DNA from: Cenococcum geophilum
Taxonomy: Eukaryota
Direction of reading: 5' to 3'
DNA: 64,000 nucleotides
Assembly (NCBI GenBank): GCA_050273025.1
Contig: CP158635.1
Coordinates: forward strand, 13,702,001-13,766,000
This document shows positions 1,293 through 60,297 of the stretch, one piece after another. The notes beneath the pieces were generated by a model. That model was not told the DNA's origin. It saw only the letters and a program-made list of their open reading frames with translations, and made no database searches. The position numbers were made by a program, and so were the translations under genes. Each line of letters opens with the position of its first letter. The stretch's first letter is position 1.

Positions 1293-3100
1293 TAGGTTAT
1301 ATAGAACTTTAGTATTTCTTTAACCTAGCTAATTAAAGGGTTATATTATTTTAGTTATCCGTATCTAGGTATTACTTTATAATACTTTAGGGGTGTTATA
1401 AATAGGGAAACGTATTTAAGGTATTTGCCTATTTACAATTTTATAAGAGCGTAATACGTCAGTTTACTATATATTAAGGGTTTACTATTAAAGCCTTATA
1501 GGCCTTAGGGCTTATTAAGTTTCTTTAAATTTAAGCGTTAGGTTTTCGCGTAGTTTATATTAATAAAGCCTATACTAGTAGCTCTGCTATCTATTAGGAT
1601 TTATACCTTCTTCTATTTTCTAAATATTTAAATTTCGCTAAGTATATTAAAGGAGTTATATTATATATTAGCGCTAGAAAAGCCTAGATACTTATACTCT
1701 TCTACTTTTTATTTTAAGGCGCAACTTAGCCTTAGGACGATTTATTTTCCAAATTAACTAAAGGTGAGATGCTTTATAGCGACTAAGTATAGTTTATAGA
1801 ATAGGTATAATTTAAGGATTAGGGGGAACTACAGCGGACCCTTTTAAAAGGGTAAGTTTAATAATTCCTTTAAATATCCCTTTTTACTATATCTAAAGTA
1901 TTTTCTATTTACGGCTTAAGTTCTTTATTTATTAGCTCCTAAGGGTATATAGGATTAGGTAGCATTAAGGTCTATAGGGTTATATATAGGGCTTTTAGGT
2001 CTTAAAGACGGATCGCGCTTTAAGGTATATATTAGTTTTGTAGAGTTTTAAATATAAGATATAGTTAGCTTTAGAGAATAAATCTGCTTATTATATTAGA
2101 GGTCTTTATTAATTTATTAATATATTATAGTAAATTTGGGTAAGTCTTTTAGTAAATCCCTACCTACTAGCTAGGCTCTAATTTCGTCTAAAAGAGCTTA
2201 ATAAAGAGCGGCAACCCTAGCGGCTTTATTTTAATCTAGCTCACTAATAAAGCCTAAAAATTCCAAAAAGAAGCTAGTAAAGTCTCGGTTCTATTATTAT
2301 AAGTTTTTAAATTTAGTAATAGCTATATATTCGCGGCTAGCGTTATTATATATTTATTCTAGCAAAGAGATAAAGGTTTTAAAATTAACAAAGGTGCTAT
2401 TATGGAAGAATAGGTTTATAGTTTATATAGCATCTTTACTTAAATAAGACATTCTATAGCTAACTTTGCTACCTTTAGTAGGGTATTAGTTATAATTTAT
2501 TAAAAGTTTAAGGCGGAGCTTGGTTATAAAGGTTTGTAGGTTATTTTAATTTCTATTAAATATTAGAGGGTTAGGAAGCTTTTCGGATTTTATAATAAGT
2601 ATTAGATTTATTATAGATACGGATTAAACTACTATTACTAGTTTGGGGTTCGCGTTTAATGGGTTAGGCTTAGGCGTAGTTATTTTAATCTTATTTATAG
2701 AGGGTATTAATACTAGGGTCTCTAACGCGAGTACTTTAGCGTCGTGAAGTTCTTTATATATTACTTTAATTGATTGCTAATACTAGGCTTCTAGTATATC
2801 TTATTGCTGTTACGGCTCCGTAACGGATCTAGTTAGGGGGCTCGCTTAAGCCTTGGCATATGTATATAGACGTATCCTTTTCTACCTTCCACTCCTTATC
2901 TTAATATCTAGGTCTATAAACTACCAATTATATAGGCTTGCATACGTTCTACGGCGCTCTTGCCTTAATTAACTAAGTCGCTGTGATAATTGCTAGGCCA
3001 AGGCATCCGTAAAGGACTATTATATTATAGTTGTTCCCTAACTAGGTCCATAATAGTTAACGTAGCGGCTTTAAGTTCGTTTGCTATTTTAAGGGTATTA
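1293..3100 (-). mobile_element. Ty3/Gypsy copy G1a: gag and aspartic protease, RIP-degenerate
   Basis: Minus-strand translation gives gag (KSEKLPDPPMFDG, FENLRQ, PIDLDAT) and a protease LIDSRATS-like motif near 1590. Segment 1293-1660 recurs at 6932-7298. Confidence 0.8.
2808..3029. repeat. solo LTR (222 bp) inserted in G1a gag
   Basis: Termini TGTTACGG...TATTATA (RIP form of TGTCACA). Flanks ATTGC / GTTGT fit a RIP-mutated GTTGC 5-bp TSD. The gag frame resumes across it. Confidence 0.7.
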
Positions 3101-4030
3101 TACGCTAATTTACTTTATAATAGTTCCGTTAACTACTTTATTTAATTAGTAAAGTTATACGCGTTAATTAGTTAAATTCTCTTAATTATAAATCCTATTA
3201 TATTAATTTTAGGTTATAGTTTAAATTTAAGTTAAGGGTTTTATCCATAGGTTGCGTAAAACAGTATTACGCCTATTAATTTATTTCTTATATTATTTAG
3301 AGTAAACTTAGCTAAAGGTAGCCACTTTTCCCAGTTGTCTGATAGGTAGAAGTAGTATATTTATAGGTATTATTCTATAATCGCGTTTATAATTTCAGTT
3401 TAACCGTTTATCTTTAGATAAAATATAGTTAAAAGTTATATTTATATACTTAATTATTTATATAAGGCTTACTAGAAGTCTAAAATAAACTAGCTTCTAT
3501 AGTTAGATATTATTAAATTAGAAAGTCTATATAGCTTAAAGACGTACTTAATAAATATTTAGCTACTAATATTGTATTAATTAAGTCTATAGGAATTATA
3601 TATAATATTTTTATAAGACGGTTAATAACTACTATAACATTTATAAACTCATTACTATTAGGTAGGTTAACTACAAAGTTAATTAAAATATCTTACTATC
3701 TTTATATTAGAATTGGCAACGGTTAAAGTACTCTTTACTTCTTTATATAAGAGGTCTTCCTACGTATATATATTCTATATACTTAAACGTATTTTTATAT
3801 ATAGTTATATATTATAGGCCAGTAATATACTTATTAGATAATCTTATAGGTTTTTATATGGCTAGTATACCCTACTATAGGGGAATTGTATATAAATTCA
3901 AGTATTTTAAATTATAAGGGTTTGGAATTTGGGACCACTATTTTCTATTAATAGTATAACTAACTATTACGGATTTTGTATTTAGCGAGTATAATATCCT
4001 TATATTACCGTTTCCCTATTTAAATTACTT

Positions 4031-4115
4031 GGCCGTCGAAATCGGACTCTGCACCTGTACGTGGTGACGGCTACGAACCTGGTCTTCGAAGTTCAGATCC
4101 AGAGCCAACGCAGAG
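4031..4115 (+). ncRNA. HDV-like self-cleaving ribozyme (predicted)
   Basis: P1 GGCCGUC(4031-37)/GACGGCU(4066-72) with G.U at the cleavage site. P2 CUCUGC(4047-52)/GCAGAG(4110-15). P3 ACC/GGU, L3 UGUACGU, P1.1 GU(4057-58)/AC(4073-74), P4 4079-4102. J4/2 GCCAAC with putative catalytic C4105. Confidence 0.85.
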
Positions 4116-5056
4116 ACGTCGCACAGCGTGCGGACAGGACCTGGTGGTGGTTGTGGGCGTTAAGGGCGGTGGTGAAAAATTTTCGGATGGTGAGATCTTG
4201 AAGAACACTACTGTTGGCTCTCTACATACGACGACTACTACGCTGTTCTCCTATCCAGGGCACCTGTACGATCCAACATGGATGCACAGTATTCGATAAC
4301 ATCCCCCGACCCCCAGTAGAAAGCATCGACGACCTCACATCGACGAACAAACAAACGCGAACGAACGAACGAACGAGCAAATATACGGCCCCTCCTAACC
4401 CCCAGGGCGATCGCCCGCGGAGCATGTGGTCACTCGCCGTACTGCCGTAATACTACTGAAACTGGCAGCCGGATAACCCCGTACGGTTTTCCTTATCTCC
4501 TCTCGACGGAGTGGTGCCCTTAGAGAGGGCCTAGTGACTGGGGCCTAGGCACAAAAGATACTCAGATACACACACACACATCCCGCTTTCGTTTTCAGTA
4601 TTAGGATGGTAGAACGGATGAATCCCCCTTACGCCTTCGATAGGCCTTAGGGGGGGGGGGAGGCATGGCGTATATGGCAATAGCAATGGTCAACAAGAGA
4701 TGGCATATAGGGGGTGGTCAAGATACGGGACACAACTATAAGTATACGGCAATCGAACGGCAAGGCCTAGCTAGGACGTAGTAAACCCTAGCTTTGGATG
4801 AGCTAGAGAAGGAAGCAGTGGTTCCCAAGGAGTTCAAAACATCCAAGGAGGAGGACGTAGCTGTGGGCCCGCAGGGCCGCTGCTACGTGCAGGCATGGCA
4901 ATTCGGGGTTTTTCATCCTACTGAGGTGGCTCATAGGGTTTTTCCTCCCCCCCAATAGCAAGGGGTTTTTCCTGTCAATATTACTTTCCCCTTGTGTACG
5001 GAGTAGTCTGCGTGGGCCTAGATAGGATCCGTATCAGACGTTAATTAAAGAATCTA
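4031..5056 (+). mobile_element. non-autonomous non-LTR retroposon (SINE/SIDE-like), copy 1: 5' HDV-like ribozyme and LINE-like 3' tail
   Basis: 15-bp TSD CTATTTAAATTACTT at 4016-4030 and 5057-5071. Second copy at 15161-16175. Its 3' end GGAGTAGTCTGCGTGGGCC...GGATCC...GACGTTAA resembles the LINE 3' ends at ~46190-46240. Confidence 0.9.
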
Positions 5057-7298
5057 CTATTTAAATTACTTTTATTATATTTACTATTTAGGGGTTGTTC
5101 TTATATTTATGCTCTATTAATTTATTAATTTCTAATTTATTTCTATTAAGCTCCATATTTAAAAATATAGGGTGTAGTTTCTTAAAACTTTTAGGGGGTA
5201 GTAGAATTTATAATTAATTTATGATCCGTTTATTGGAGGCATTTATATATAAGTTCTATAATTGTTATATTAATAAGTTAGGCTTCTAATTAAGTTTGCT
5301 AGGTCGGTATATAATCTTAAAGTTAAATTATAAAAGGTATTTAGCCTAATAAATTTAGCGCTATATTAATTGCTTTATAGTTATAAAGTTCTATAGGTTT
5401 TTATAGTCCGTTAATACGTATATTAAAAATAGCAATCCTTTAAGTTCTAAATGCTATTATTTAAAGTATCTAATAATTATAAGCAGTTCCTTATTATATA
5501 TCTTATAGTTTAATTTAGTAGGGGTAAGTTTCCGGGAAAGAAAGGCTCCTAGGCGTAGCCCGCTGTTCTTATTATATTATAATAACACTCCTCCTAGTAT
5601 ATAATTAGATAAGTTTATTTTAACAATATATCTAAGGCCTAGATTAAAGTAGGTAAGAATTAAAGTAGTTATAAAATAATATTTTAGGTTATTAAAAAGC
5701 TTATTTATATTTAGTAGTCTACTTAAATCTTATATTCTTTCTTATTAAGTTTAATAATGGCTAAACAATTTTTAAGAAGTAATTAATAAATTAATAGTAG
5801 AAATTTGCAAATTCTAAAAATCCTTAGATGTTTTATATACTACTAGGACTTTCTTAGTTTATAATTATAGCAATTTTCTTAAAGTCTATTTTAATTCTAT
5901 TATAGAATATAATTAGGCCTAAGTATATAACTTTAGATATATAAAACTTATATTTCTTAATATCGCATTATAAGCCTGCGTTTTATAGGCATTTAAAGAC
6001 TATTTAGATATACTTCTAATACTTAAAAAGTAAAGATAAATAAATTAAGATATTATTAATATACGCAGTAATAAATATATTAAGGAATTTATAAAGTAAA
6101 TTATTAATATATTACTAAAACGTACTAGGACTATTATTTACACTAAATAGTATTACTAGGTATTTAAAAAGTCCCTATTATATACGGAAAGCTATATACT
6201 TCTTATCTCCTTTACAAATATAGATTTAATTAAAGATAGTAACTACGTTAAGCTTTATAAAGTATTATGCTTTTACTAAGTAGCTAAGCGTTTCTTAAAG
6301 CAAAGGAATTAAATATTAGTTTTAAATTATAATTATATTTAAGGCTTAATAATTAATACAGAACCTTATGCCTCCTTTAGGTTTCTTAATAAATAGTATA
6401 AATAAGGTAAATAGTAATTAACTAGGGTAAATAAATCCTTTCTTTAGGTGCTCTTTAAGGTATTATTGTATTATAAGCAGCTTTTCTTATAATATACCGT
6501 ATAATGGGCTAAACTTTAGTATTATACTAGGTTTAAGTTCTATTTTAAAATTATACTTAGCTTAATATAGGGGTAGTTAGTCTATAAATCGTTTCTTAAA
6601 TATATTAATTAGATTATAATATTTTTTAGGTATAAGAGGTTAGGGGTTAATATATTACTTTAGTTCTAACGCCTTCTTAATATTTTTTAGTGTTATAGTA
6701 AAGATTTTATAGTCTCGTTTTCTTATTAATAAATAAAAGGGTGCGGCCTATACTATATAAATTTTAAAAGGTTTTAATATATTATCTTCGCATTCTTTAC
6801 TATAATTAATAGTTATAACTTTATTATATTAGTTTAAGGTTTATAGTAAGGGCAATTTATATTATATTAAATTTAAATAGTTATATATATATTTATAAGG
6901 CAAGTGGTATTTTAAGTAATAACTTCGGTAATAGGTTATATAAAATTTTATTATTTCTTTAACCTAGCTAATTAAAGGGTTATATTATTTTAGCTATCCG
7001 TATCTAAGTATTACTTTATAATACTTTAAGGGTGTTATAAATAGGGAAATGTATTTAAGGTATTTGCCTATTTATATCTTTATAAGAGCGTAGTATATTA
7101 GTTTGCTATATATTAAAGGCTTACTATTAAAGCCTTATAGGCCTTAGGGCTTATTAAGTTTCTTTAAATTTAAGCGTTAAGTTTTTATGTAGTTTGTATT
7201 AATAAAGCCTATACTAGTAGCTCCGCTATTTATAAGAATTTATACTTCCTTCTATTTTCTAAGTATTTAAATTTCGCTAAGTATATTAAGGAAGTTAT

Positions 7299-8641: not shown

Positions 8642-10864
8642 CATTTACTACTAAGGTTATAGTATTAGCAAGTCAAGCAATATACTACTAAAAGCACTAA
8701 GCTCGGACCCCTAGAACTTAGTTAGCCCCTAAACTCGGCCACCTAACCAAAATTAAACCACTAACTTGTCAACCTACCTTCTTTATAACAAATTAATCAA
8801 TATAGACTAAAGTAAGTAGAACTTATAAATAACTATTATAGATTCTAAATTTAATGTTTATAAGTCTATACAAAAAGCAGTGCTTGCATATAGTGTCCCT
8901 TTAGCAATTTTAAGCAATAATTAAATGGCAGACTACTAAAACAATTTATATACCAATGCGAATAGTAACTAACTCCTATATAGTAGGCCTTCCTTGCCAA
9001 TTAGGTACTTAAATAGGATTTATAAAAAAAATAATAGCTTAAGTCTTTAGTTAAGGTAGTAATACTAAGCCCCTTAGTAAAATATAGGTAATTAGCTACT
9101 CTAAATAAAATCTTTATATAAATATTAGTTATATATTTACTACTACGTTAAACGCGTAATAAGAGGAGCTCTTGCTGCACCCGGCCTAAAAAGACTAAAA
9201 CCAACTAAAAGAACTCTAAAAAATACCTAGAGAATCTCCCTAAGATGTATATATCGCAGGGGAGGCACACGTTAAACGACGGTGGTTTGCACTCGCGCGC
9301 GTCCGCCAAACCTACGCCTAGTAATAGCCCTCTATAATAAGAATGGGTAAATACTATACTATAAAGTGGGAAGACCTCTATTAAAAAGGCATCTAATAAA
9401 ATATAAAGCCTATTAGACGCGTTTAGTATCCATAATTATAGGGGAGTAACTATTAGCTATAATAAACTAATATAGCTAGTAGAATGGCTCTACTAGCCTA
9501 GTAAACCTTAGGCGCCCCTTTAGTAAACCCTTAATTAAATCCTCTAATAGCTAAGCAAAATTAAAAACAAATAAAACCCTTTCCTACCGGCGAGCCGTAC
9601 CTAGGCCGCTGTAGCTGCACTTCTATAGCATAGGGAACCTACCCCCCTTAAGATAATAACTGGGTATATAATTATAATATAACCAAATATAGAAAAAGCA
9701 GAGGGGCTTAGGAAATAATTAGAAATAAAAGTTCTTATAGAGATTTGCAAAGAGGTTTATAATACTATTATAGTCTAACACCTTAGGAGTAAAGATATTA
9801 GAGTTACCCTAAAGGACTAATAGGTAAAGGGATAAGCTATAAGGGTAGGGGACAGGCTAGGAAAACGTATTAGCATAAAAGTGCTCTGTGAAAACTACCT
9901 AGTTAAAGTCCTAGTGGTCCCCCTAAGCTTTAGGGTAGAAAAGGAACGCTAGGCGGACAATATAGTAACTATATATAAGATAGTAAAACAAACGGAACAC
10001 CTTATACTAAGACTTAAGATTACCTAAATCTAATAGCTCTACTAGAAAAATTTAAACTAAGTATATAATAAAAATAATAAGAGGATATAAGGGTCGCTAG
10101 AGACTTGCTAGAGAGTCGCCGGTTAAATGTATAGCTCCCTTATTATTAGCATATATACACTAGGGGGGTTTTAATAAACTGACGGAAGGTATCTAATAAA
10201 AGGTAAAGCTAATTTTTTAGTGCTTATATATACGATTAGCTCGACCTTCCGGCAATTGGTTAAGTAGGGGTTTCGATAAAGAGCAATTCTTACCTCCCAC
10301 CAACTCGACGGTTCGATCAACTTGGCGCGCGGGATTAAAAGACATGGTGGCAAGGATCAACTGTGCGAAATTTGGAGTCGCTGGCTGCTGTTAACAAAAT
10401 AGGGGGCTGGTTTAAAGTTCTGATGAAAATATCCATTAAAACTTTTGATATTTACCAAGAATCGAATCTGACAGAAGGTCCTACTAACTATATACCGCTA
10501 GTGCGCGAAGATCGCCTCGATTTGAGTTGCATTACCTTCCGTTAGATACCTTTGTCAGATAATCTGTATTCTCTGTGGCGTAGGACGTGCACGAGTCACG
10601 TGCACGGGGCCTGTGCTTTGTAAATATCTTTATCTAAGCCCAGGGGCCCTAGGTCAACACACGATAAAGATCAATTAATCAATTAACCCATTTCATCAAT
10701 AAATAGCTCTATATAAGTTATCTAACAGTTATAAGCCCGGTCCGCCGACTTAAGAAGCTATTCAGCTATTACTTAATCATTTAAAGAAATTCTACCTCAT
10801 CGTCAGACTCTGACACCCCATCGTCACAAGACGACCCTAATCAAAATCCTACCTTAAATGTCAC

Positions 10865-10985
10865 AGGACGAGATTCCACGAGATTCCACGAGACTCCACC
10901 TTAATCGTTAAAGGACGATCCTGACGACAAGGACGATCCTGACGATAAAGACGATCCTGCGACAAGGACGATCCTGATGATGAAT
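10865..10985 (+). repeat. short tandem repeats in the C1 leader
   Basis: CGAGATTCCA x3 and GACGATCCTGACGACAAG-type unit x4. Confidence 0.8.
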
Positions 10986-13900
10986 TCCATCTTAATTCCC
11001 ATCTGCCTATTAGTCAAATGACTCCACCAACGTCGAGTTTGTTTACCACAATCATCCTTAATAAGCTAGAAGACTGGGAGTAATGGATCTAGCAACTATA
11101 AGCCCTTATAGACAAACGAATTTAGGCCCATGTTAACCCAGATAAGAAAGCACCTCAATAAGGCCTACTATAAGAACTACCCTATCCAGAAGTTATAGAT
11201 TTCAATAAGAATGTAACCTTATATGCATAGCTCTCAACGAATTAATAGAGGGCGTACGAGAACAGCAGACAATACTACGACTAGGATATAAAGTATTTCC
11301 TAAAACAAGAAGAGCACCTTTAAAAGATTCGCACCTAAATTACGTCCACAGTATTAATTTAGAAGAAGCTACTACTTAACCCTTCTCTTACAGTTAAGGA
11401 ATGGATATCTCGGTTAAAGGAGAATACAGAACCTACTTTATTATTTGTTAGAAAAAAGATACAACACCAGTACACGGAAGCTCTTAAGGGGTTTAAACAC
11501 TTATTAAAATTAAATTAGTAGTTAGATTAATAGGAACATATAATAGTACTAGGAGAGAAGTATAAGATCCCTTAAATATCTAATGGAATCTGGCTACAAG
11601 AATTAGCAGAGGTCGTTTAACCCTTTAGTAACGCCTACTATATAAAGTATATTACCAAGTTAAATAACCCTTAGAAGTTGAGATCTTCTAAATACTATAG
11701 AGTAGCAAAGGAGCTATAAGAAGGACTTAGAATACCCTTAAAAAAAGCCAATACTACTATAAGAGGGAGTACCTTTAATATAGACTTTACAGAGCAAGCT
11801 ATAATGGATTACTCTAATACTACTAAAGGTCTAGGGAAAAGAACCTTAGCATATACTAGACGCTTAAAGAGAGCCAGGTTACTAGTAGACGAGGAGATAT
11901 CCTATAAGAAGCTACTACCTGTGTGCTTAGCGTATAAGAAATAAGGACATTCCCTATAGGACTATTAGTATTTATTTAAAGATAAGAGACCCAAAGGAGT
12001 TATAATCGGAGATGCTCGCATTAAAAGGATACTAAAGAAGGTAGAAAAGAATAAGGATCTCACTAACTAAGTTATAAAGATTAGACTTAAAGAATAGGAA
12101 GATAAGGCTTAATAACAACAGGATAAGAGCAAGGAAGTTAAGATTAAGGAAGAAGCTAATGCGATATTCCTAGAATTGTATTATATAGGTTAAATCTATC
12201 CACTAAAGCTATTAACTATTCTTAACTTAGGAACCACTCTCTATATCTTTAATAACCTCTCTTGTTTTTATAACTTTAGGAAAGCTTTAAAACTTAAATA
12301 CATTATTACTGGCAGCTTAGAAGTGCCTATACTAGGCTACGGTAATATTACTATCTAAGTTACAAAACTAGACAAGAGTAAGGGAATCCTATACCTTAAG
12401 GACGTTGCCTTTTATACGGACTTCAATATAAATCTAGTATTGTTCCATCTACTTCAAAAATAAAAGTACTACTAGGACAATAAAAGAGAGAATAATCTTC
12501 TAGTTTAGAAGGATAACTCAGTCCTATATTAAATAGAAAAACGTTATAGATAACAGACTATTAAATATATCCGATTAGGAAGTCTATTAGCGTTTAATAT
12601 AAGCTAAATGCTACGCCAAAGGAAGCGCAGAGCATCGTTAAGAGACGCTTGTCTAGATTTAAAAGGAGATATACGTCTATAGCATTTGCGTCTAGGTTAT
12701 CCAGGACCTATAAGCCTTTATTATTTAGGTCTTAACGTCTTAGGAGTTAAGCTTTAAGGCCTAAAGACAATAGAATGTTAATATTACAGTCTCGCTAAAA
12801 TTAAGCATTAGGTCTTAAGAAGGTTCTTAAAATAGAAGATTAATAAACCCTATCTTAACCTTTATATTAACTGGACTAACCTTAAGGAAGCGCATACCGG
12901 ATTTGTACGAGTTATACTTATCTATAACACCTACTTAGGAAGATCCTTCCCGTATTTTATAACGACGCATAGTAAAGAAAAGGAGACACTATAAGTGCTT
13001 AAAGATTTTATCTAGTGGATTCGTCTAAGGTATAACCTTAAGGTTAACACTATTAGATTAGACAACAAGCTAGGGAGAAGAAGAACCCTTAAATAGCTAC
13101 GGACTTAAGGGATTACATTTAAGCCTTCGGCGCCATATACCTAAGCTTAAAACGGTACCGCCGAACGCTTAGGGGGTGTAATTATTAAGAGAGCACGAGT
13201 AATAAGAATTACTACTAATCTACTACATAATCTATAGAACGAGATAGTTAACTGTGTAGTCTACCTTCGAGATCGAACGCCACGGGAAAGCAATAGATGG
13301 AAATCGCTATATAAGAGGTTCTATACCTTCCTAGCTAATAGGAGACTAAGAAAACCACAACTAGCGTACCTAAAAGCCTACGGCTATAGGGCGTACGCGA
13401 TAATATCAGACGCCTAGCTAAAAAAGAAAAGGCTAAGCAAGCTAGATCCGCGAGCCTATATTAGCTATCTTATTAGCTATAACTCTACTAATATCTATAG
13501 GATCTGGATCCTATATAAGGGTATCGTTATCTCTATAAGGGACGCCATCTTTAACAAAAAGACGTTCTTTAATGGTAAGTAAACGGACATTTTAAAGGAC
13601 CTATACGCTAAATTAGATATATTAATTAAGAATATTTAACTACCTAATACCTAAACTAAGAACGAGGTCCTTCTGGAAGATGATAAAGAAGTATTTAAAC
13701 CGTCAATTTAAGAGGAAGACGACAATGTTGATAAGCTAGTTTAAGCCTTTAATAAGTTAGCAGATCTTAAGCTTGCAAGAGCTCTTAGAGATATATACTA
13801 TACACCACCTCTAACAGAAGAAGACGAAGAATCTCTATATGCCTTTTACGTTGAGTATCCTATAAAGTTAGATATATAAGGTACTAATTAAGACGTCGCT

Positions 13901-15160
13901 TATTAAGCAGGAGATGCGTTTAACACTTAGGGGGTGTCCAATAACTTAGTTAAAGACTCGTTTAAGGAAGCTAGTAATAATAGGTTTAAAGACTTTATTA
14001 CTAAAAGGATCACGTCAGCCTATTACGGCGCCTTCTTAGCAGGAAGGAAGTTTAACCTTAATAGTTAACTTAATAATAGCAAGCTGAAATTAGGCAGAAT
14101 ACGCAATGTTAGATTACATAGGAAGAACCTACCTCCGCTACCCTAGTTAATCCGGGACCTTAATACGCATCCTCTTTAAGATCAGTTTTAAGAAGCTTAA
14201 CGAGCCTATCTCCAATCTCATTATTAAATAAGGTCATTTTAAGAAATAGATAAAAAGCACGCAAAGGGATAGTAGGTCCTTAGCTTAATATAGGTATTCG
14301 TCTACAAGACGGACAAGTATAGATTTCTCCAGAAATATAAGGCACGCTTAGTAGTCTACGGAAATTAATAGGCCCCAGGAGACCTACCTATAAGAGCCAC
14401 TATATTAGCTAGTACGACCTTCCGAACCCTTATAGCGATCACTATAAAATTCAACCTAGAGACGACACAGATAAATACTATTAATGCGTTTGTCTATTGC
14501 GATCTTAACAAAGTTATTTATATAAAGCTACCGCTAGGGTTTAATAAAGGAAAGACAAACAAAGTACTGCGCTTAAGAAAAGCCCTATACGGACTACGAC
14601 GATCACTACTGTTATAGCAAAAGAATCTCACGAGCTTATTAAACGAATTGGGTTTTAAAGAAGTACCCTAAGAGCCGTATATCATGCTAAAAGGTAGAAT
14701 AGTTATCTTCTTCTACTTTAATAATATTATCTTCTACTACCGAAAGATAGATAAGAAGAAAGCTTAAGAAGTAATTAAGGAGCTGAGTAAGGAATACCAG
14801 ATAAGTACCCTTAGCGAGCTAAAATAGTTCTTAGGAATCTATATGCTACGTAATCGTAGCTAGAGGCTCCTATAGCTATCCCAAAAAGCCTATATTAAGA
14901 AAATAGCTAACTAGTATAAGATAGATCTCAGAGGGCGTCTTTTAAATACTCCTATGGCAGAATCGGAACTCCTCCCTACTAATCACTATATAATCCGTCC
15001 AACGCGTCCGTCCACCAATATAGACCTATTAGTCCGTCCTATATCCCTACCAGCTTCTACAATACTATATTAGAGAAAACTAGGTTTAGTACTCTATATA
15101 GCCACTATAACGCGTCCGGATATTGCCTTTGCAGTATTACGGCTAGTAAGGTTTAATTAG

Positions 15161-16175
15161 TAGTTCTTTAATTAACGTCTAATACGGATCCTATCTTGGC
15201 CCACGCAGACTACTCCGTCACAGGGGGGAAAACTTATAATTTACATAAAGAAAACCCTGCAGTTGGGGGAGGAAAAACCCTATAAGCAGCCTCAGTAGGA
15301 TAAAAAACCCCAATTTGCCATGTTTGCACGTAGCAGCGGCCCTACGGGCCTATTACACGTCCTCCTCCTTAGATGTTTTAAACTTCTTAGGAACCACTGC
15401 TTCCTTCTCTAGCTTATTAAAGCTAGGGTTTACTACGTCCCAGCTAGGCCTTGCTAATCGATTACTATGTCTTATTATCTCTTTATGTCCTATATCTTGC
15501 CCATCCCCTATATACTATCTCTTATATAGACCACTGCCATATATGCCTTGCCTCCCCCCCCCTAGAGTTATTAAAGGCGTAAGGGGGATTCATCCATTCT
15601 AACTACCGTAATACTAATAAGCGAGCGGGATATTGTGTATTTGGGTATCTTTTATGCCTAGGCCCCAGCTAGGCCCTCTCTAAGGGTTACTACTCCGTTG
15701 AAAGGAGATAGGGAAAACCGTAGGTCGCAATCCAAGCTGCTAGGTAGTATTTGGTAGTTAAAAACGGCGAGTAACTACATACTCCGCGGGCGACTGCCCT
15801 AGGGGTTAAGAGGGGCCGTATATTTGCTCGTTTGTTCGTTCGCTCGTATACTTGTTCGTCCGTCAATATAAGGTCGTTAATGCTTTCCATTAGGGGCTAG
15901 GGGATGCTTTTAAAAGCTGTTTATCCACGTTGGATTATATAGGTGCTTAGTAGGAGAACTAGTGGCTGTATTGTAAAGGGGTACCGTTAGTAGTGGTTTT
16001 CGAGATCTTACCATCCCATATAAAAACTTTTCACTACGCCCCACGACGCATATAACCACCAGGTCCTACTTACACGCGCTATACAACGTCTCTACGTTGG
16101 CTCTGGGTCTGAACTTCAAAGACCTAGGTTTGTAGCTGTCACCACGTACAGGTGCAGAATCCGTTTTCGACGGCC
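15161..16175 (-). mobile_element. ribozyme-headed SINE/SIDE-like retroposon, copy 2, inserted in C1 pol
   Basis: 16-bp TSD AGTAAGGTTTAATTAG at 15145-15160 and 16176-16191. Full-length reverse-complement homolog of 4031-5056. Confidence 0.9.
16090..16175 (-). ncRNA. HDV-like ribozyme, second copy (lightly mutated)
   Basis: GGCCGUC...UUCUGC ACC UGUACGU GGU GACAGCU AC...CCAAC GUAGAG. P2 changes keep pairing as G.U. One G>A mismatch in P1. Confidence 0.75.
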
Positions 16176-19072
16176 AGTAAGGTTTAATTAGGACCCAAGC
16201 TAAGAGCACTAACGAGCGGTAGATAGAGTTATCTAGTACCTATATAGTATAAGGAGCAGAGCAATCTACTATAGAGGAGATAAGGAACAAATAAACGGTA
16301 GAGGGAGAGATAAAGGAATACGTGACCAAGGACGAGACGACGGAGACGGTAGAAGTAAAGCGCAATTATTTATCTATGCTAGTAACGCATTATTTACAGA
16401 CAACTCCGTTAATAGAAAGAGCTTATAAGGATACATTATAAAGCTATTTAGGGGGCCGATCGCCTGGAGAGCAAATAAGTAGGATATAGTTATAACGTCG
16501 AGCACAGAAGCTAAGCTGTTAGCCCTATTACAGACAGCAAAGGAAGCTATCTTTATTAGTAGGCTGTTTAAAGTAATAATGTTATAACTAAATAAGCCCT
16601 TAATTATTAACTGCAATAACACCTAGACACTCTAACTAATTATAGAAGATACGGTAAAGCTAATTACGAAGCTCCAATACGTTAACATCTATTAATACTA
16701 GCTACGTTAGGAATACGCAAAGAGACGAGTACGATTTTAATAGATAGCGACAAAGGAGATGATTGCTAATGGACTTACGAAGGCCCTGCCTAAGTAGAGG
16801 TTTTAAAGCTTCATTAATATAATCGGGATAGTGGATATTAAGGAGCGGCTAAATAAGGAGAAGCAACTAAAGGACCTAAGGAAGAATATTAGAGCGAGAC
16901 GGAAGGATTTAGATAAGATTATGGTTTAATTAACGCATTAACGGACACAAGAAGGTGGTTAGCTTTAACCTTAAAAAGCTTAAAGCTAAGGGGGTGTATC
17001 AGATAATCTGTATTCTCTATGGCGTAAGATATGCACGAGTTACGTACACGGGGCCCGTGCTTTATAAATATCTTCATCTAAGCCCAGGGGCCCTAGGTCA
17101 ACACACGATAAAGATTAATCAATTAATTAACCCATTTTATCAATGAATAGCTCTATATAAGTTATCTAACACCTTCCGTCAGTTTATCAAAACCCCCCTA
17201 CTAGGAATGCAAAAACTCCTTATCTAAAAAGGTATTATTATAAATAGCCTTATATATAATACAAAACTCTATAACTATAGACTCCGCCTAAAATAATACT
17301 ATTGCTATATATAATAGGAACATACCTAATCTATATACGCAGTATAGGTGTGCTGCGGCCATTATATAGGCCCCTATAATACGAGACGCTGCTTAAATTA
17401 AGACTAAATAAAATATGTAAACTGTTACCGAAGCATATATAAGGCGTAAGAGAGAGAAAACTGCATTAAATATAGGAGATAAAAGGTAAGGGCTTAACAG
17501 CTACGGGAATAACTATATACTAGGTTATATAAATAAAAACAATAGGCAATAAGCTAAGGGGACGTAGGTGCCTTTTTAGCGTTTCCTACCTTTAATATTA
17601 GGGGGCTAGGCTAGCTATCCTAAGCCTTAATAGGCTAGAAGTGACGCCGCGTGATATTACTAGACTAAATAGGGATATAAGGTTTATAGGGGATATAAGG
17701 GAGAGGACGCCTTATAGGAAGACCCTTATAAACAGCTATAGCAAGCTTAAAACCAGGACAATTAAGAATTAGACTTAACGCGGCAAATATAATATTTATA
17801 GCTAACTTATAAAGGGTATATATCTAACTAGTAAGAATAGGGAAAGAACTAAAGGTAATAATAGATTTAGATATAGAAGTGCTGGTAGAAATACAAGATA
17901 TAGGAATAAAAAGCTCTATATAAAATAAGTAGTAACTAGGGTATAGATATAAGAGATAGAAGTTCTAAATATTCTAAAGAAAGTAGAAATAGAAGAGGCG
18001 AAGGACCCTCACTAGGGGTCCGCCACCTATTTATTATATAGTATAACTGCGGTAATATAAACCACTATCTTATAAGGCCCCTACTAGATAGTATAGACCT
18101 AGAGAAACACTATATCCTTACTATATAAGAGCCGTATTATAATACCTATATATAATTAATATACTGCCCCTAAGGATTCCAGCTCCTATATAAACTAAAA
18201 GTAGCTATACGCGTATGCTTTATAATTAGTAAGGCTATTAGCCTAACCTTATAGTTATAGTAGGCAGTTATAATAATCTAGATATATAGGGGACCGGTAT
18301 AAATTATTAATATATATAACCCTAGGGTTAAAGGGGTCCTATAAACAGAGAATATTATATTAATAATAAGCTTACTGGAAACTAAAGGTATAGAGTTTAT
18401 TCTATTAGAAGATATAAACCTCTACTACCTGTAGTAGGGGGGTATTTATATTACTGCTAATTATTAGGTAAAGTGCCTACTAAGAGCTATAAATATCTAA
18501 GGCCTTAAGCTAGCCACCCCCTTAGGAGTAATTATATGGTAATAAGGCACCGCTAGAAATATAATTAACCTCATATTTATAGATGAAGGCCTATACTAGA
18601 GACTTAAAAGGTATAACCCTAAAGAAAAATAAGCACTCGCTTTAGACTATATCCCTATTTAGATATAGCTAGATTTAGATATTAAGGCGTAACTAAATAG
18701 CAAAAGATATGTAATAAGAAAGCTTAAAATAGATAGCTTCCTTACTATAGTTAAATAACAACTTTAAACCCTAGAAGAAATCCACCCAATACTAAACAAG
18801 CGAGGCTTATTAGCTACCCCTAAGGAAACCAACTAAAGACTAGAAAAGATTTAGGCAGCAATTAAAAATAGGCTAAAAGAGTACTGCCTAGTCTTATAAC
18901 TAGGCCCCTATACGTAATATATATGGTCCGCATAATGCGCGGTTTTTATTACTAGCTAATAATAAGTAAAAAGGAAATATATAAGTAGCTATAACCCTAA
19001 AAATAAGAGATAATACAAAAATATAAGAAACTAGTTAAAGAATACCCTAAAAAAAGAAGTAAGGAATAACTA

Positions 19073-19499
19073 ACGTAATCTATAAGCCAGTAGTACCAAC
19101 GAGCGAGTGGTACCACTCTAAAAACTTACTAAAACCCCCAAAAATCGTTCTTTTAATATCTTAACAACGGCTTAATAATAAATTTAAAAATTTAAAATTA
19201 GACTCTTCCGCCTATTTTAAGACCTTTATTGAAGTTTTAAAGTAGTTTAATAAGTAATTCTTAAGATATAATAATTAGGCTTAAATTTAAAGGCTAAATC
19301 TTAATATACTAATAATGGCTAAACTAATTACTTTAAAACTTTAATAGAGGTCTTAAAATAGGTAAAAGAGTCTAATTTTGAATTTTTATAATTTATTATT
19401 AAGCCGTTATTAAGATATTAAAGAACAATTTTTGGGTTTTTTAGTAAGGTTTTAAGTAGTACCACTTGCTTATTGGTACCACTGGCTTATAGATTACGT
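19073..19499. mobile_element. pogo/Fot1-type foldback MITE (427 bp)
   Basis: ACGTAATC...GATTACGT termini with TA TSD. Inverted arms of about 175 bp cover most of the element. Confidence 0.9.
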
Positions 19500-19612
19500 T
19501 AAAGACAGTTTATAAATAAGCACACTTTTAACCCGAGCCTCCCCTATAATAAGGGCCTTTAGGCTATAGCAAAATATGTAAAGAAAAAGGTAGGGCGCCT
19601 AGTAGAAGATTT

Positions 19613-21719
19613 TTTTAATCCATTATATTATACTAAGTACAATACTGCGCATGCAGCCTTGGGCTATAGCGCTATAGTTCTATATACATAAATCCTTTCT
19701 AGGCAGCTTAATATATACTAGTAGCTATGTCCTAGTAGTTTATAAACCCCTAAATTAGGAGTTTATAGTTTCCTAGTAAAATACTAAGATACTATAACTA
19801 CTAGGAAATGAGAAAATGGTAAGAAAAACTATAAGAAATCCTAACCCCTGTCCCTATCCTTTTGTAATTTATTTTTATCCTTTTGCTCTCTAATATCTTT
19901 TTAAGAGCCTAGTAGGAGTTACCTCCTTCTAGAATCCTATCTGTTTTTATTCTTCCATAGATTCTTCTTTACATACTAGTTTAGCAGCTTTAAGAGTCTC
20001 GCAGTCTTTACTATTAGCAAAGTGTTTTTCTTTATAATTAATGCAAAGAGGGGTGGTATGCTAGCAAGGCTTGCCTATTATTATACAGGTAGAACAGGAA
20101 TAGTCTTTAGATAAATATACAGCCGCATAGTATTTATAGGCCCTAGTAGAGCACCTATCTCCTATATGGCCAAATTTTTGGCAGCTCGTATACTGCGTAG
20201 TAGGAGAGACTTTGAGGTATTTTACTACCTTAGTAGCTGTACCTGCAATTAATATCTCTTTTTGCTTAAGGATTTCTTGTCTTTTTTCTTCGTTCTTTAT
20301 AGTAAAAACTATAGAGCCAAATCTGGTCTATAGATTGTGTCTTTTTATACTAGATAAGATCTATTTAGGTAGTCCTTGTATCCTTATAGGATTAAAGGTC
20401 TCGATTTTTTCTTTTAGAAGCTTAGAGCCTCCTTCTCCTAAGAAAGGTAGGGTAGGAACCCTATGGGCTATAATTTAAGCCCAAGGTTCTAGTTTTTGTT
20501 CTCTTTAAAAGGTAAAGCAGTTATGCCAGATTTCTTTATATTTAACTAGGAAATCCGCATTATACTCTTCTATAGTTATAAGGAGAATATTTTATTTTCC
20601 TTTAGTTCTAGCTATGGGTGCTAAAACAGGTTTTTCTACTTGCAGTTTTAATGTAAATAGTTGATTGACTTTATTTCGTATAGAGAAGGTATCTAAAGGT
20701 TAGTTCCTTTGGTTTGTAATTAGGACTAGCTTTCTTTCTTATAGCTGCTTTTTCTTACTTTTAGTAGAAGTAAAAGGAGTAGGAAATGGTAATAAGGAAG
20801 GTAGAGAGGACAAAGTAGGGAGGCCCTTCTTTAGCCTCTCTGCGTAGGTTTCTTTAGTAGGGGCTACCTCCTTATAGAGAGCTCTTACTTCTTTAACTAG
20901 TCCTTTTAGAACATCGTTTGTCTTTTTTTTTTCCTTTTATAAAGGGGTTTTCTCCTACTAGGACACTATGTGTATAGTCCTCTAGCTGTTTAACTTATTC
21001 CTTTTTATTTATTTTTTCTTCTTCTTCTTCTTCTTCTAGCCCTTTATAGGCCTGGGTTAGGCTATCTAAAGCCTTTTATAGGTGTTGTTCTGGAGAAAGG
21101 GGAGTGAAAGATATACTATGTATACCAGCCGTAAAAGTCCTTATTTTAGTTGTCTTTTTTATAGGTTTTTAGTTTTCTTTTTTAGTAGAAGACTAAGGAT
21201 GTCCTCTTTTTTCTCCTGTCCTAAATAGGCTAGGGGAAGGAGAAGGGGTAAAAAAAGTGAGTGTAGATATAGACTTATTATCACTTATTTCTATAGGAGG
21301 TTTTTTTTTAGGCCTACCGGGCCTTGGCATTTTGTGTCTTATAAGGGGGTTTTCCTAGTTTTTACTATCCTTATACCCTTTTCTCCTTACTAATTCTACT
21401 AGAAGATTTCTGGGGAGATTAGGCTAAGAGGTAGTAGAGAAACTAGCCCCTATTTTGTAGTTTTAGTATTAGTAGTAGTGGTAGTAGGTTTAGTGTTCCT
21501 GTCCGTGCCTCGCTTATAAGCTAGGGCCACCCTTAGAGAAAATTTTCTATTGGGAAAAGGGGGTAAACCGATAAATAAATCCACCTCTAGCTCGCTAGGC
21601 AGTAGGAATTAGGTCTTGAAAGTTAGAAAATCGATTGTTTTTGATGGTAAGATGGGTATGCGTAAGTTTTGGAGTGTGGCGCTACCTTTTGGTAAGGTTA
21701 TATGTGTGGTAAAGGTTTT
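19613..21719 (-). mobile_element. ORF1-only non-LTR element (HAL1-like), copy 1
   Basis: TSD TAGAAGATTT at 19603-19612 and 21720-21729. A-tail seen as a T run at the left end. Single gag-like ORF 21330->19947 with Cys/His knuckles. Homolog at 60298-62441. Confidence 0.85.
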
Positions 21720-24518
21720 TAGAAGATTTATACCTACTATCACTACAAAGAGCAGGGGAATTATAGGCCACTAATAACAATAATAAGAAGGCAAAGATCT
21801 TTATAAAAAGGTTCTTCCTCTAACCGGCTTTAGTAGACCTTAGTAACATTACGAGGGAAATACTAGTAACTCGCTTACGGGTTAACAGCAATATAATAAT
21901 AGAGGAAATAGCTAAAACTATTAGCCGCCTTTTAAATAATATAGCACTAAAACTAAATAGGATTTTAAATAAGACCTTAAAGACCTATAGACTATTTATA
22001 GCACCTTAACTTATAGATATAGCTAGAGCATACTTTACTATAGGCTACTACTTATAACTTGGAAGATCTATAACAATAGTTATCCTATAAAAAGAAGGTA
22101 AAGCAGATTACTTAATCCCAGGAAGTTACCGCCCTATTACCTTAGAAAACACCCTTAATAAGATCTTAGAAAGAATAATAGTAGTCTATATAGTAGATAT
22201 AGCTAAGGAATACGCCCTACTACTATAAAGCTAAATAGGGGTAAGAAAGAACCGCTGAACACTATTAGCACTTACGCTACTTGCTGCCACTATTAAATCT
22301 ACATAGGCGATGCAAAGGGACTTTATAGTATTAATGCTTAGCCCAGATATTAGTAGTGCTTATAATAACGTACCCTATAAGCGTCTCCTATATATTCTTA
22401 GGGTAAAAGGCTTTCTAGAATAGATTATATAATTTATTTAAGGGTTTATAGGCTAAAGAGAAATATTACTGGTCTTTAGCGGATACTAGAGCCCCCCTAT
22501 TATAGTTATAACAGAAATACTATAAGGATTACCCCTCTGGCCTATACTCTTCCTTTTCTTTATAAGTAACCTGCTTAACTCCTTTAAGAAAGGGGCGACC
22601 TAGGGGATAGGCTTTATTAATAATATAAACCTAATTATATACGGGCTAATAGCTATAGAAAATTATAGAATACTATAGAAATCCTATAATACCTATATAG
22701 AATAGGCAAGACAATATAGAGTCTAATTCTTACTAGAGAAATACCAGCTAATCTATTTTATAAGAAAACGTAACCAATCTATAGATCTTTAGCATTTAAT
22801 TTATATCTAAGGCTTTAGGGGTTAACTAGTTTAGGGCCTAAGGGTATTAGGAGTATAGGTAGATAGTAAACTCTAATAGAGCGTATATACGGCGTAAGCG
22901 GCCTATAAGGGCTAAGCACAGTATATTATATTATTTAGGACCGTTAACTCTATATAGGGTCCTTACTTCTAGAGGTCACGCCTACTATATATAGTAGTTG
23001 TCCGGCTAACTATAATATATAGGTCTAGTATTTAGGCCATTAGAGAAACTAAGAAAGGCCCCCCTAAATCGCTCCTTAAACCACTTTAAAAGGTCTAAAT
23101 AGTCTACCTCTAAAGTATAATAAGTGGGTATAAGCAAACAGCTACAGCACTGCTTAGAAAGGAAGCTAATATTCCCCCCTATAACTATATATTAAAGCTA
23201 CTATAATATAAAGGGCGTAAAATAAACGTAACTCTAATATTATAAAGTATATTAAGATATGCCTAAATAAACTATAGAGGGATTTTAGGGTGCCCTATAG
23301 AAGAATAAACCAATAACCCTAAAATAAAAAAGATATATTAAAGAAATAGGTAAAGAAAGCAGAATAAGAATAGTGCTGCTTTAGGGCCTATGCCTATATA
23401 GAGAAAGAAGGGAGACGCGTAAGAGGCCAGTAAAGACGATAGTAAGAGAAAGAAAAGAGCTAAAGTAGAGTATAAAAGAACGCTAGGAAACTATCTACCA
23501 TAATATAATACTAGTTGGACTAACGCTAAAGAGGTAAATAGGAGTTAAAGGTATAGAGGCTAATTTAGGTAAGAGGAACCTAAGCCGTAATATAGTTAAT
23601 ACTATAGGGGGTAAATACTTAAGGGCTTTAAGAAGGCCTAATAAAGGCAAAAAATATAATAGCAACACTCTTAAAAATAAAAATAATAAGACTAAAAGAC
23701 TGGCTCTACGGGGTAGGCATTTTAGTAGGTAGCCTATAATACGAATATAGCTGGCCAATATAGACCCTAAAACACGTAATACTATTATACCCCTTATATA
23801 CTAACTAAAAAGTAATACTCTTAGTAGCTAGCATAGAGAACTATAATACACTACTCTTAATATAAAAAGGTCTTAAGGTGGTTACCTAGTAGCTTATTAG
23901 CTAAAATATGCTTAACTAGTTCTGGGTTATAAGGGAAATAGTAATAAAAGGTAAAGGGGCGAGGAATAGGCGCCTCCTAATAACTCTATAGTAGTAGAGT
24001 AAAGTTTATAATACTAGCGCGTTTATAGGCTTATTGTAGCAGCAGTGGTGTTTAAAAAGGTTAAAAAGTAAGGTAGTAGAGCACTATAGGTAACTCGTAA
24101 GCGCCGCGTAGGCGTTAAGTAGGCGAGTCCTAAAAGGCAGGGAGATAGATTATAAGGTTTTCTTAAGTAGAGTTTTCTCCCTATATATAAATAAGGAGTA
24201 ATCCGCGTGGGCCTAATAGGTATTTAAATTAGACTTTAAACAATAAATAATTATTAATTTATATAAAATTATATATGCCTAATTAATAGAATGTATATAA
24301 ATTAATAGGGTATAACTAAAGTAAATTTAAAAGTTTTATAGCCATTATAAAAGGGTGTAAGAAAGGTTAATATATAGGTAAAAAAAATACTTAAAATATA
24401 GACAAATTTAGAGTTATATTAAGCATATATATAAATTTAATTACAATAAGGTATATCTTTTAAAAAAAGTTTTCTATAAAGTCGTTTAATAATTATAAAT
24501 AGGTATTTATTATAAAGA

Positions 24519-60200: not shown

Positions 60201-60297
60201 AGACTAATAATATTTCTTTTTAACCTATAAACCCTTAAATAAACTATATAATCTATTCTAGGAAGCCTTTTACCCTAAGGATATATAGGAGACGCTT

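Follow-up and report, generated by a model that had tools for sequence, protein, structure and literature searches.

A probable ribozyme-headed, LINE-tailed non-coding retroposon in the fungus Cenococcum geophilum

Introduction

How does a kilobase of DNA without a credible open reading frame (ORF) come to lie at two places of a fungal genome, each time as a discrete unit between short direct repeats, and with an end that resembles that of a protein-coding retroposon nearby? The question is raised by a stretch of 64,000 nucleotides of Cenococcum geophilum (GenBank assembly GCA_050273025.1, contig CP158635.1, positions 13,702,001 to 13,766,000 of the forward strand), here called the window, in which an element of 1.02 kb occurs twice, as copy A and copy B of a family that we name F1. 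A first-pass annotation, made from the letters alone, had described it as a parasite with a ribozyme head, a non-coding body and a tail like that of the long interspersed nuclear element (LINE) resident in the window. We consider it probable that F1 is a ribozyme-headed, LINE-tailed, non-autonomous retroposon moved in trans, and we weigh this reading here against its rivals.

Results

F1 is a non-coding, non-autonomous retroposon

The two copies in the window, with their target site duplications (TSDs) and parts, are as follows.

4031-5056, forward strand: copy A of F1, a non-autonomous retroposon (BLAST, sequence reading, GC content)
4016-4030, forward strand: left TSD of copy A, CTATTTAAATTACTT, 15 bp, identical to the 15-mer at 5057-5071 (script check)
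5057-5071, forward strand: right TSD of copy A, the same CTATTTAAATTACTT 15-mer
4116-4809, forward strand: non-coding body of F1 (ORF scan, column-wise variation)
5050-5056, forward strand: terminal GAAT(CTA)n of F1 (downstream strings of seven full-length copies)
15161-16175, reverse strand: copy B of F1 (BLAST, alignment)
16176-16191, reverse strand: TSD on the element's 5' side of copy B, CTAATTAAACCTTACT, 16 bp (script check)
15145-15160, reverse strand: TSD on the element's 3' side of copy B (script check)

Re-reading both loci bore out the two copies and their distinct 15- and 16-bp TSDs. The copies are 77.7% identical over 1052 aligned columns, and the 3' border of copy A is defined to within 3 nt, since its (CTA)n tail and its TSD both read CTA. 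Transitions, for the most part C>T and G>A, account for about two thirds of the changes in copy B relative to copy A, a pattern like that of repeat-induced point mutation (RIP). Copy A has a GC content of 52-53% and is free of RIP mutation inside DNA of 24% GC, and is therefore a recent insertion. The absence of a credible ORF and of a tRNA or 5S head, as first annotated, also held. No stop-to-stop ORF of at least 120 codons exists in the whole window and the longest ORF of copy A has 88 codons; ARAGORN predicted no tRNA gene in 3900-5200; Rfam at E<=10 over 3500-5600 gave two matches, both outside the element and unrelated to it, and nothing within; and neither program found a small-RNA head (tRNA, 5S or 7SL).

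Further copies came from metagenome contigs that were scanned with the tail motif shared by F1 and the LINE, which gave at least 124 loci (labelled L followed by a number) with 131 tail occurrences among them. The DNA of the organism sampled in this way amounts to about 1.2 Mb, every locus having been picked through this one motif, and copy numbers are those of the sample. Among the loci listed there are five more full-length F1 copies, which makes seven with the two in the window. All seven have TSDs of their own, which differ (15, 16, 13, 15, 14, 11 and 14 bp), all seven finish in GAAT(CTA)n with n from 1 to at least 5, and in all seven the junction between body and tail is identical. The scan also gave related sequences with ribozyme-like heads, which we name F2 and F3.

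At least half of the element's sampled words occurred in 20 sequencing runs from 16 studies, 13 of them recorded as RNA, and four runs were aligned: one of raw stranded RNA reads (X24), two contig sets from RNA libraries (X1 and X3) and one DNA contig set (X19). In the DNA set, 5813 contigs with many variants were placed on the element region; 17 contigs carry unlike upstream flanks that stop at 4031, and one contig resembles a paralogous "empty" site, joining 4030 to 5094 with 23 other letters between them. The flanks of copy A (3831-4030 and 5057-5256) are themselves a high-copy repeat in this set, with summed depths of 64,000-140,000, and are silent in the RNA libraries.

F1 is thus, with near certainty, a non-coding, non-autonomous retroposon of the non-LTR (long terminal repeat) class, and the description of it as one with a LINE-derived 3' end is supported by the seven copies, each with its own TSD of 11-16 bp. 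It has all the features of a short interspersed nuclear element (SINE) in the broad sense, being non-coding, flanked by LINE-type TSDs, sharing its 3' end with a LINE and existing in many dispersed copies, and the family is active-looking. The first-pass annotation had itself raised two readings that would undo its own: that the element is a known tRNA-derived SINE, or that only two copies exist and arose by DNA duplication. Both are most improbable, as is any ordinary SINE headed by a tRNA, 5S or 7SL sequence and transcribed by RNA polymerase III (Pol III). Known fungal SINEs are indeed related to tRNA or 5S RNA (PMC5063351; here and below, the papers cited are represented by excerpts of their text), but ARAGORN found no tRNA, no Rfam small-RNA family matched, so that F1 is no SINE in the strict sense, and 1.02 kb is long for a Pol III SINE. 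Duplication, in turn, is at odds with seven full-length copies with different TSDs, a number that exceeds the two first seen, and with the many variant contigs of the DNA run.

The first 85 nucleotides are predicted to form an HDV-like ribozyme

The head of F1 can be drawn as a ribozyme like that of hepatitis delta virus (HDV), with paired regions (P), joining segments (J) and loops (L) at the following positions of copy A.

4031-4115, forward strand: predicted HDV-like ribozyme, putative cleavage 5' of G4031 (descriptor, pair counts, covariation with F2 and F3)
4031-4037/4066-4072 (nt 1-7/36-42), forward strand: P1, 7 bp, with a G4031.U4072 (G1.U42) wobble
4038-4046, forward strand: J1/2 (predicted fold)
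4047-4052/4110-4115 (nt 17-22/80-85), forward strand: P2 (predicted fold)
4053-4055/4063-4065 (nt 23-25/33-35), forward strand: P3, abutting P1
4056-4062, forward strand: L3, 7 nt (predicted fold)
4057-4058/4073-4074 (nt 27-28/43-44), forward strand: P1.1 (predicted fold)
4079-4085/4095-4102 (nt 49-55/65-72), forward strand: P4 (predicted fold)
4103-4109, forward strand: J4/2, AGCCAAC, with candidate catalytic C4105 (or C4106) and AA after it

The topology was first fitted by hand and then coded as a descriptor tuned on F1, which matches once on the two strands of the window, at base 4031. Over 2,434,592 bases (window and loci, both strands) there are eight sites: three first bases of F1, one first base of F2 (in L044) and four places in AT-rich DNA. 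In twelve block-wise dinucleotide shuffles the descriptor matched 3.0 times on average (range 0-6), and none of the 36 shuffled matches had a GC fraction above 0.46, while real ribozyme-like heads have 0.58; the four AT-rich sites are therefore background and the four terminal sites are not. As the descriptor was tuned on F1, only the F2 match counts as independent evidence.

The position of the head within the element is also informative. The predicted cleavage base is the very start of nine of nine F1 heads and of four of four F2 heads, with unrelated flanks, and the RNA template that was reverse transcribed therefore began exactly there. Over six distinct F1 rows the proposed pairs are formed in 97.3% of cells, compared with 27-44% for slid partners. 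RIP-type transitions aside, conservation within F1 is highest in the first 100 nt, with one transversion column and one gap column, and positions 101-300 have 8-14 transversion columns per 50 nt. In copy B, a G>A change at ribozyme position 39 disrupts P1; the head of this copy has no descriptor match and scores 112.8 bits with a covariance model.

Three structural features of HDV-like ribozymes are found. P1 should have 6-7 bp from G1, usually with a G.U pair, and it has 7 bp with G.U in both F1 and F2. The nested double pseudoknot, with P2 across P1, a 3-bp P3 abutting P1 and a 2-bp P1.1, is present in a hand-made, structure-guided alignment. The HDV-like catalytic motif is C-N-R-A in J4/2, directly 5' of the 3' strand of P2, and J4/2 reads AGCCAAC in F1, GGCCAA in F2 and AGCTAAC in F3, F1 and F3 having one extra base between the motif and P2. 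The gathering score of the curated Rfam model is reached by none of F1, the F2 head and the F3 locus. Judged on fold and alignment, it is well supported that nt 1-85 of F1 are predicted to form an HDV-like nested double pseudoknot with a predicted cleavage site at base 1, which is in line with the ribozyme head first annotated, and the F1 head would then be expected to cleave itself.

A related family and a third sequence carry similar heads

The sequences related to the F1 head were placed as follows.

L044:2920-5074, reverse strand: F2 copy
L050:7721-10060, forward strand: F2 copy
L050:~3343-5192, reverse strand: F2 copy
L052:6005 onward: F2 copy
L025: F2 copy
L020:11971-15051: head-to-tail chain of partial F2 bodies
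L063:10698-10815, forward strand: F3 head (covariance model)

F2 is a GC-rich element with an HDV-like head that satisfies a descriptor not tuned for it. When the F2 head was compared with 4227 Rfam families, HDV_ribozyme (RF00094) came out on top, with all 89 model positions matched and the match beginning two bases upstream of the element's first base. Trained on F1 alone, a covariance model recovered F3 (40.7 bits, E=9e-7); with its filters off it also picked up the head of the L044 copy of F2 (18.9 bits, E=0.007), those of the L050 and L052 copies lying within noise at 11.8 and 10 bits. At default filters F2 was missed by both covariance models, R1 and R2. The F1, F2 and F3 heads are homologous, 2, 0 and 0 of 300 shuffles reaching the observed alignment scores. 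In the cross-family table of pairs, a hand-made structure-guided alignment tabulated by script, P1, P2, P3 and P1.1 consist of standard pairs throughout in all three heads, and 12 of the 18 pairs have changed on both sides (P1 5 of 7, P2 3 of 6, P3 2 of 3, P1.1 2 of 2). P4 of F3 is long; the F3 locus has no Rfam match at E<=5, and in the sampled loci neither a LINE tail nor a second full copy of F3 was found.

The bodies of F2 behave otherwise than those of F1. The F2 body is non-coding, has 1815 nt and ends at a constant base, and in five of five copies it is fused to a LINE piece that starts at a different place, at LINE positions 5197, 5041, 4059, 3262 and 4865. One F2 copy has a 13-bp TSD, and in L020 partial F2 bodies are chained head to tail, each ending at body position 1815. 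A constant 5' RNA joined to variable LINE pieces is the hallmark of the MINE elements of Magnaporthe, and F2 shows it in all five copies. It could be argued that each F1 copy is likewise a one-off template-switch chimera, so that F1 would be no self-propagating family; the variable junctions of this sister family and the chain in L020 lend the idea some substance. We regard it as very unlikely for F1, in which the junction is identical in seven of seven copies and the tail has diverged as one unit with compensatory changes in its stem (described below). The fixed junction and the divergence of the tail as a unit indicate, therefore, that F1 was copied as a whole.

The tail of F1 imitates the 3' end of the resident LINE

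Two features describe the part of F1 that is shared with the LINE.

4810-5056, forward strand: tail like the LINE 3' untranslated region (UTR), with three blocks at 4814-4832, ~4930-4945 and 5000-5049 (alignment with four LINE 3' ends, block statistics, BLAST)
5006-5039, forward strand: 3'-terminal stem-loop common to F1 and LINE, outer stem 5006-5010/5035-5039, inner stem 5013-5019/5024-5031 (RNAalifold)

The last 48-58 nt of F1 match the LINE 3' ends at 63234-63178, 58483-58436 and 46188-46235 with 80-84% identity (BLAST), which agrees with the match of about 50 nt noticed at first; the fourth LINE 3' end of the window, at 24256, aligns with the other tails, so that alignment with all four agrees. 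The second shared block, AGCAGTGGTTCCYAAGGAG, occurs at 4814, 15383, 46048, 58616 and 63357 with at most three mismatches, five matches where 0.02 are expected and a number that 0 of 100 shuffles reached, and is thus present in both F1 copies and in three LINE tails; the block first reported stands, with its LINE coordinate of 63358-63376 moved by one to 63357. Altogether, F1 carries in its last ~250 nt a diverged LINE 3' UTR.

Six tails folded jointly with RNAalifold share a stem-loop with 12 pairs, two of which have changed on both sides and read U-A in F1 and C-G in the LINE and F2 tails. At the outer covarying position, the 131 tails have C/G in 94 cases, T/A in 16, C/A in 9 and T/G in 3, with 9 unresolved; this is one compensated difference between families plus RIP noise, and not many independent events. 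All T/A-type tails examined come from F1 copies or fragments. The architecture of the F1 tail is that of a parasite imitating the 3' end of the LINE to which the reverse transcriptase (RT) binds, and the real partner of F1 may be a related LINE rather than the sampled one.

The LINE lacks the head of F1

The LINE itself is present in four copies in the window, two of them split by nested insertions, and copy B of F1 lies inside the insertion between the first two pieces of the copy at 9166-24273.

9166-24273, forward strand: full-length LINE copy, RIP-mutated and split by nested insertions (BLAST of the full-length LINE L061:842-6386)
9166-10164, 17200-19071, 19508-19610 and 21720-24273, forward strand: its pieces (LINE 2-1001, 996-2903, 2911-3013 and 3006-5545)
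~22100-22772, forward strand: RT domain of this copy (Pfam RVT_1, E=3.6e-8)
27760-46255, forward strand: second LINE copy, interrupted and internally deleted (BLAST)
27760-29753, 44186-44719 and 44719-46255, forward strand: its pieces (LINE 2-2013, 2008-2541 and 4000-5536)
58421-63171, reverse strand: 5'-truncated LINE copy, split by a 2.1-kb repeat (63171-62442, LINE 2948-3677; 60297-58421, LINE 3665-5530)
63168-63999, reverse strand: 3' part of a further LINE copy (LINE 4689-5535), the match stopping one base short of the window end

The interval 19545-19608 is internal LINE sequence adjoining the inserted 2.1-kb repeat. Coverage of the LINE, counted from the tail in bins of 500 nt, falls as a ladder of 5' truncations (81, 48, 40, 33, 26, 23, 19, 17, 15, 13 and 11), and at least 11 full-length copies begin at a common 5' end, some 5.5 kb away from the tail. 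Transitions of the RIP type amount to 13-19% in LINE copies; translated with X at stops, the full-length copies yield the RT domain (RVT_1) alone, and stop codons remain in the RIP-corrected consensus. An intact ORF2 relative of 1026 aa, P0001, is 74% identical to the RIP-mutated query and 88% to the RIP-corrected consensus, and P0001, P0002, P0004 and P0005 each have an apurinic/apyrimidinic endonuclease (APE; Exo_endo_phos) domain and RVT_1. An RNase H domain after the RT is a feature of the Tad1 clade. APE and RT were thus found in the intact relatives, and RNase H in none of these four at E<=0.01 nor among the precomputed domains of 33 matches, and the Tad1 label first given to the partner LINE is unproven.

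The comparison of F1 with the short internally deleted elements (SIDEs) of the R2 retroposon, made in the first-pass annotation, implies that both ends are shared with a LINE. With the one LINE family sampled, F1 shares the 3' end and not the 5' end. The descriptor found no HDV-like fold at the 5' end of the 11 full-length copies, even with a relaxed P1; Rfam found no ribozyme in the two LINE-bearing loci that were scanned; and covariance models run over 1.19 Mb placed no head beside LINE coding sequence or at a LINE 5' end, so that the autonomous LINE with the same head that had been proposed as a target of search was not found there. The LINE 5' end is no more similar to the three heads than shuffles are (90, 135 and 119 of 300 reach the observed scores). 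A separate candidate, a resemblance of the LINE 5' UTR to the region after the ribozyme, was rejected by shuffled controls.

With neither ribozyme fold nor similarity at its 5' end, this LINE is therefore not the source of F1 by internal deletion, and the parallel with SIDEs holds for function and fails for origin as far as the sampled LINE is concerned. F1 could still be a true SIDE of an autonomous LINE with the same head and tail that lies outside the sampled set. This agrees with the divergence of its tail from the sampled LINE and its different terminal repeat, with a sample of only ~1.2 Mb chosen entirely via one tail motif, and with the origin of R2 SIDEs by internal deletion (PMC3414825). 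We nevertheless think it unlikely, given that the 1.19-Mb covariance search, the unrelated LINE 5' ends and the T/A-type tails, all of F1 origin, gave no trace of such an element.

F1 is abundantly transcribed

In the stranded RNA run, 11,650 reads were placed on the element, with orientations about 100-fold apart (e.g. 4431.8 vs 28.6 at 4167-4214), and the dominant orientation is apparently sense RNA, as in most stranded libraries. Depth climbs over the first ~200 nt and drops over the last ~170 nt, as expected of a unit-length RNA, and 395 molecule ends fall at 4043, where the neighbouring depth is 965. The contigs of the two RNA libraries span the element and not its flanks, and the DNA set shows those flanks to be high-copy; since they are high-copy in DNA and yet uncovered in the RNA contigs, contaminating DNA does not account for the signal, which is RNA.

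The body of F1 differs among copies, with an (ACGA)n-like run at ~4340-4370; transversion and indel columns cluster in 4116-4809, and the reads show many variants and replaced stretches there. Contigs of the RNA libraries (three in X1, one in X3) show a variant of the element without the 196 nt at 4426-4623, and in the raw reads the dominant expressed subfamily has the sequence from ~4438 to 4616 replaced.

Other repeats of the window

Outside copy A, which is the sole stretch above 50% GC, the window is repeat-rich with 21-44% GC per kb, and it looks like a RIP-mutated repeat compartment. A 2.1-kb repeat at 19611-21719 and 60298-62441 is inserted at LINE ~3010 and ~3670, in opposite orientation to the LINE. 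Its far strand, read through stops, is mostly open and encodes CCHC-like zinc-knuckle motifs and a run rich in E and K; the repeat has no Pfam match at E<=0.01 and may be an ORF1/gag-like element. The nested insertions that split two LINE copies, at 10165-17199 (7 kb) and 29754-44185 (14.4 kb), are possibly LTR elements, and a (TAGG)n-like tandem array with a period of 8 nt lies directly after a LINE 3' end, at 46723-46826.

Discussion

A proposed mechanism and what speaks against it

We propose that a transcript containing the element would arise either through read-through of outside transcription or from the element's own promoter; that its first 85 nt would fold as an HDV-like nested double pseudoknot and cut the RNA 5' of G1, setting the 5' end of a unit-length RNA; that the 3' stem-loop and short (CTA)n would act as copies of the 3' UTR of the resident 5.5-kb LINE, which encodes an APE endonuclease and a reverse transcriptase; and that this LINE or a close relative would copy the RNA in trans by target-primed reverse transcription, leaving TSDs of 11-16 bp. 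The copies, their duplications, the lack of coding capacity, the common tail with its compensated stem, the transcription and the fit of the fold with its covariation are observed; self-cleavage, the identity of the partner LINE and the way in which transcription starts are inferred.

A number of observations tell against this proposal. In the head, F1 has no Rfam match at E<=10; the nested, pseudoknot-free minimum free energy fold of nt 1-88 is ordinary (z=0.19, 108 of 200 shuffles as good) and P1 is absent from it; covariation inside F1 is uninformative, with too little diversity and 324 of 500 shuffles reaching the observed score; and three traits of F1 are not canonical for the ribozyme: one additional C separating the J4/2 CCAA from P2, a P1.1 of G-C plus U-A, and a bulged P4. 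Among the relatives, the F2 head scores 24.3 bits (E=1) in Rfam, where the gathering score is 50, F2 is displaced by one base in MAFFT relative to the structure-guided register, and the 7-bp P1 of F3 opens with a G-C pair instead of G.U. In the tail, identity to the LINE is just 80-84% over the last 48-58 nt, and the terminal repeats differ, (CTA)n in F1 and (AAT)n or (ATT)n in the LINE. RIP has inactivated each of the 11 full-length LINE copies sampled, with 698-1064 C>T or G>A changes each vs 30-79 others. As for the RNA, the 5' ends pile up at +13 and not at +1, and 8494 of the 11,650 reads of the stranded run are just 90-95% alike, which points to related copies, in a run whose organism is labelled differently. 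Since these reads come from related copies elsewhere, the empty flanks are no evidence for clean 5' ends. The offset of 13 we take to reflect library chemistry, and the RNA would then have a uniform 5' end at or near +1, the last dozen bases having been lost in library making.

The same observations leave room for a head that is not catalytic, the first 85-170 nt being an internal promoter or a protective structure with transcription starting at G1. The unremarkable energy of the nested fold and the missing Rfam match of F1 would be expected of such a head, and the apparently sense RNA is abundant though the copies lie in AT-rich, RIP-mutated DNA, which suggests a promoter of their own. The trypanosome elements L1Tc and NARTc indeed have a promoter and a ribozyme in one and the same 77 nt at their start (PMC3383444, PMC3185411), so that the two roles are compatible. 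A promoter alone, though, leaves unexplained the compensatory changes in four helices and three lineages, as well as the Rfam HDV model that tops the list for F2 and the descriptor matches at the exact first base in two families, and we judge it improbable.

Meaning of a ribozyme without its LINE

Ribozyme-headed retroposons are already on record from insects (R2 and its SIDEs), from other metazoans and from trypanosomes. Here the predicted ribozyme sits on the parasites and is absent from the LINE that presumably copies them, and the head does therefore not come from that LINE but looks like a module in its own right, which turns any transcript into a template of defined length. More tentatively, and as a reading that we hold to be somewhat less likely than not, non-coding RNAs with HDV-like ribozymes at their start may form a lineage in this fungus that has no autonomous element and exploits one APE-type LINE in two ways, F2 through template switching and F1 through a fixed LINE-like stem-loop. 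If so, F2 would enter the genome by template switching onto LINE cDNA, giving chimeras like MINE, and F1 would spread as a unit. The ribozyme, by which any read-through transcript would gain an exact 5' start, would then join Pol III promoters and 5' ends inherited from LINEs as a third type of "SINE head", and the WEIRD RNA of Magnaporthe would be predicted to begin with a similar ribozyme. Through F2, F1 is linked to the MINE/WEIRD chimeras of the rice blast fungus, long without an explanation, and a testable idea of such RNAs emerges. Moreover, F1 is abundant, transcribed and has a copy that escaped RIP, which makes it a candidate agent of insertional mutagenesis that may still be going on in a repeat-rich fungal genome; its family is also a source of new, predicted natural HDV-like ribozyme sequences.

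Comparison with known systems

In the literature searched, which did not extend to Repbase or Dfam, we found no description of a fungal ribozyme-headed retroposon, nor a paper with the term drz-Tatr, reportedly the name of a fungal HDV-like ribozyme. A review of 2019 assigns LINEs and SINEs with ribozymes to metazoans, deals with trypanosomes separately and, in its excerpted text, mentions fungi only for the VS ribozyme and Penelope-like elements (PMC6765202).

The R2 SIDEs of Drosophila are short, internally deleted, non-coding elements whose 5' end is defined by a ribozyme on a co-transcript (PMC3414825). F1 is alike in being non-coding and non-autonomous, with a 5' end set by a (predicted) ribozyme and a 3' end that the LINE protein would bind, as it does in R2 SIDEs, when target-primed reverse transcription begins. 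It differs in that R2 SIDEs share the ribozyme of R2 by internal deletion, whereas the LINE of F1 has no ribozyme at its 5' end, and in that R2 SIDEs are specific for 28S rDNA and depend on a restriction-like endonuclease, whereas F1 goes with an APE-type LINE, dispersed AT-rich targets and TSDs of 11-16 bp. The NARTc/L1Tc pair, with the Pr77 hallmark of trypanosomatid retroposons, resembles F1 in that a non-autonomous element has an HDV-like head of ~77-85 nt, abundant RNA and a possible promoter role (PMC3185411, PMC3383444, PMC4035085); in the trypanosomes, however, the first 77 nt are near-identical in L1Tc and NARTc, whereas here the head is on non-coding elements only and the host is a fungus.

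Among fungi, the Mg-SINE of Magnaporthe has a head of the tRNA type. It imitates the 3' end of the LINE MGL (PMC2104539), as F1 imitates the resident LINE. In MINE of Magnaporthe grisea, WEIRD, a highly expressed, full-length non-coding RNA of 1.1 kb, is fused to variably truncated MGL copies, and the fusion is ascribed to template switching in reverse transcription (PMC2104539). MINE is thus like F1 and F2 in joining a highly expressed fungal non-coding RNA of ~1-2 kb to the 3' part of a LINE between flanking repeats of 10-20 bp (PMC2104539). F2 shares its variable junctions, whereas the junction of F1 is fixed and its tail is its own; the excerpted text on WEIRD mentions no ribozyme (PMC2104539), whereas F1 and F2 have predicted ribozyme heads.

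UnaL2 and UnaSINE1 of the eel are a stringent LINE/SINE pair, and the SINEs of such pairs have Pol III (tRNA) heads, whereas F1 has a ribozyme-like head and a length of 1 kb. Stringent pairs have in common a 3' stem-loop and a short terminal repeat (PMC5135761), and the stem of F1 is likewise kept by compensatory changes. F1 is therefore neither a strict SINE nor a SIDE of the sampled LINE nor a MINE-type chimera, and stands outside these three classes. Its head is closest to the HDV ribozyme (RF00094), with which it shares the topology of P1, P1.1, P2, P3 and P4, the G1.U wobble, a 7-nt L3 and C-N-A-A in J4/2, although sequence similarity lies below the Rfam gathering score; lengths are also alike, the candidate catalytic cytosine being nt 75 or 76 in F1 and C75 in genomic HDV.

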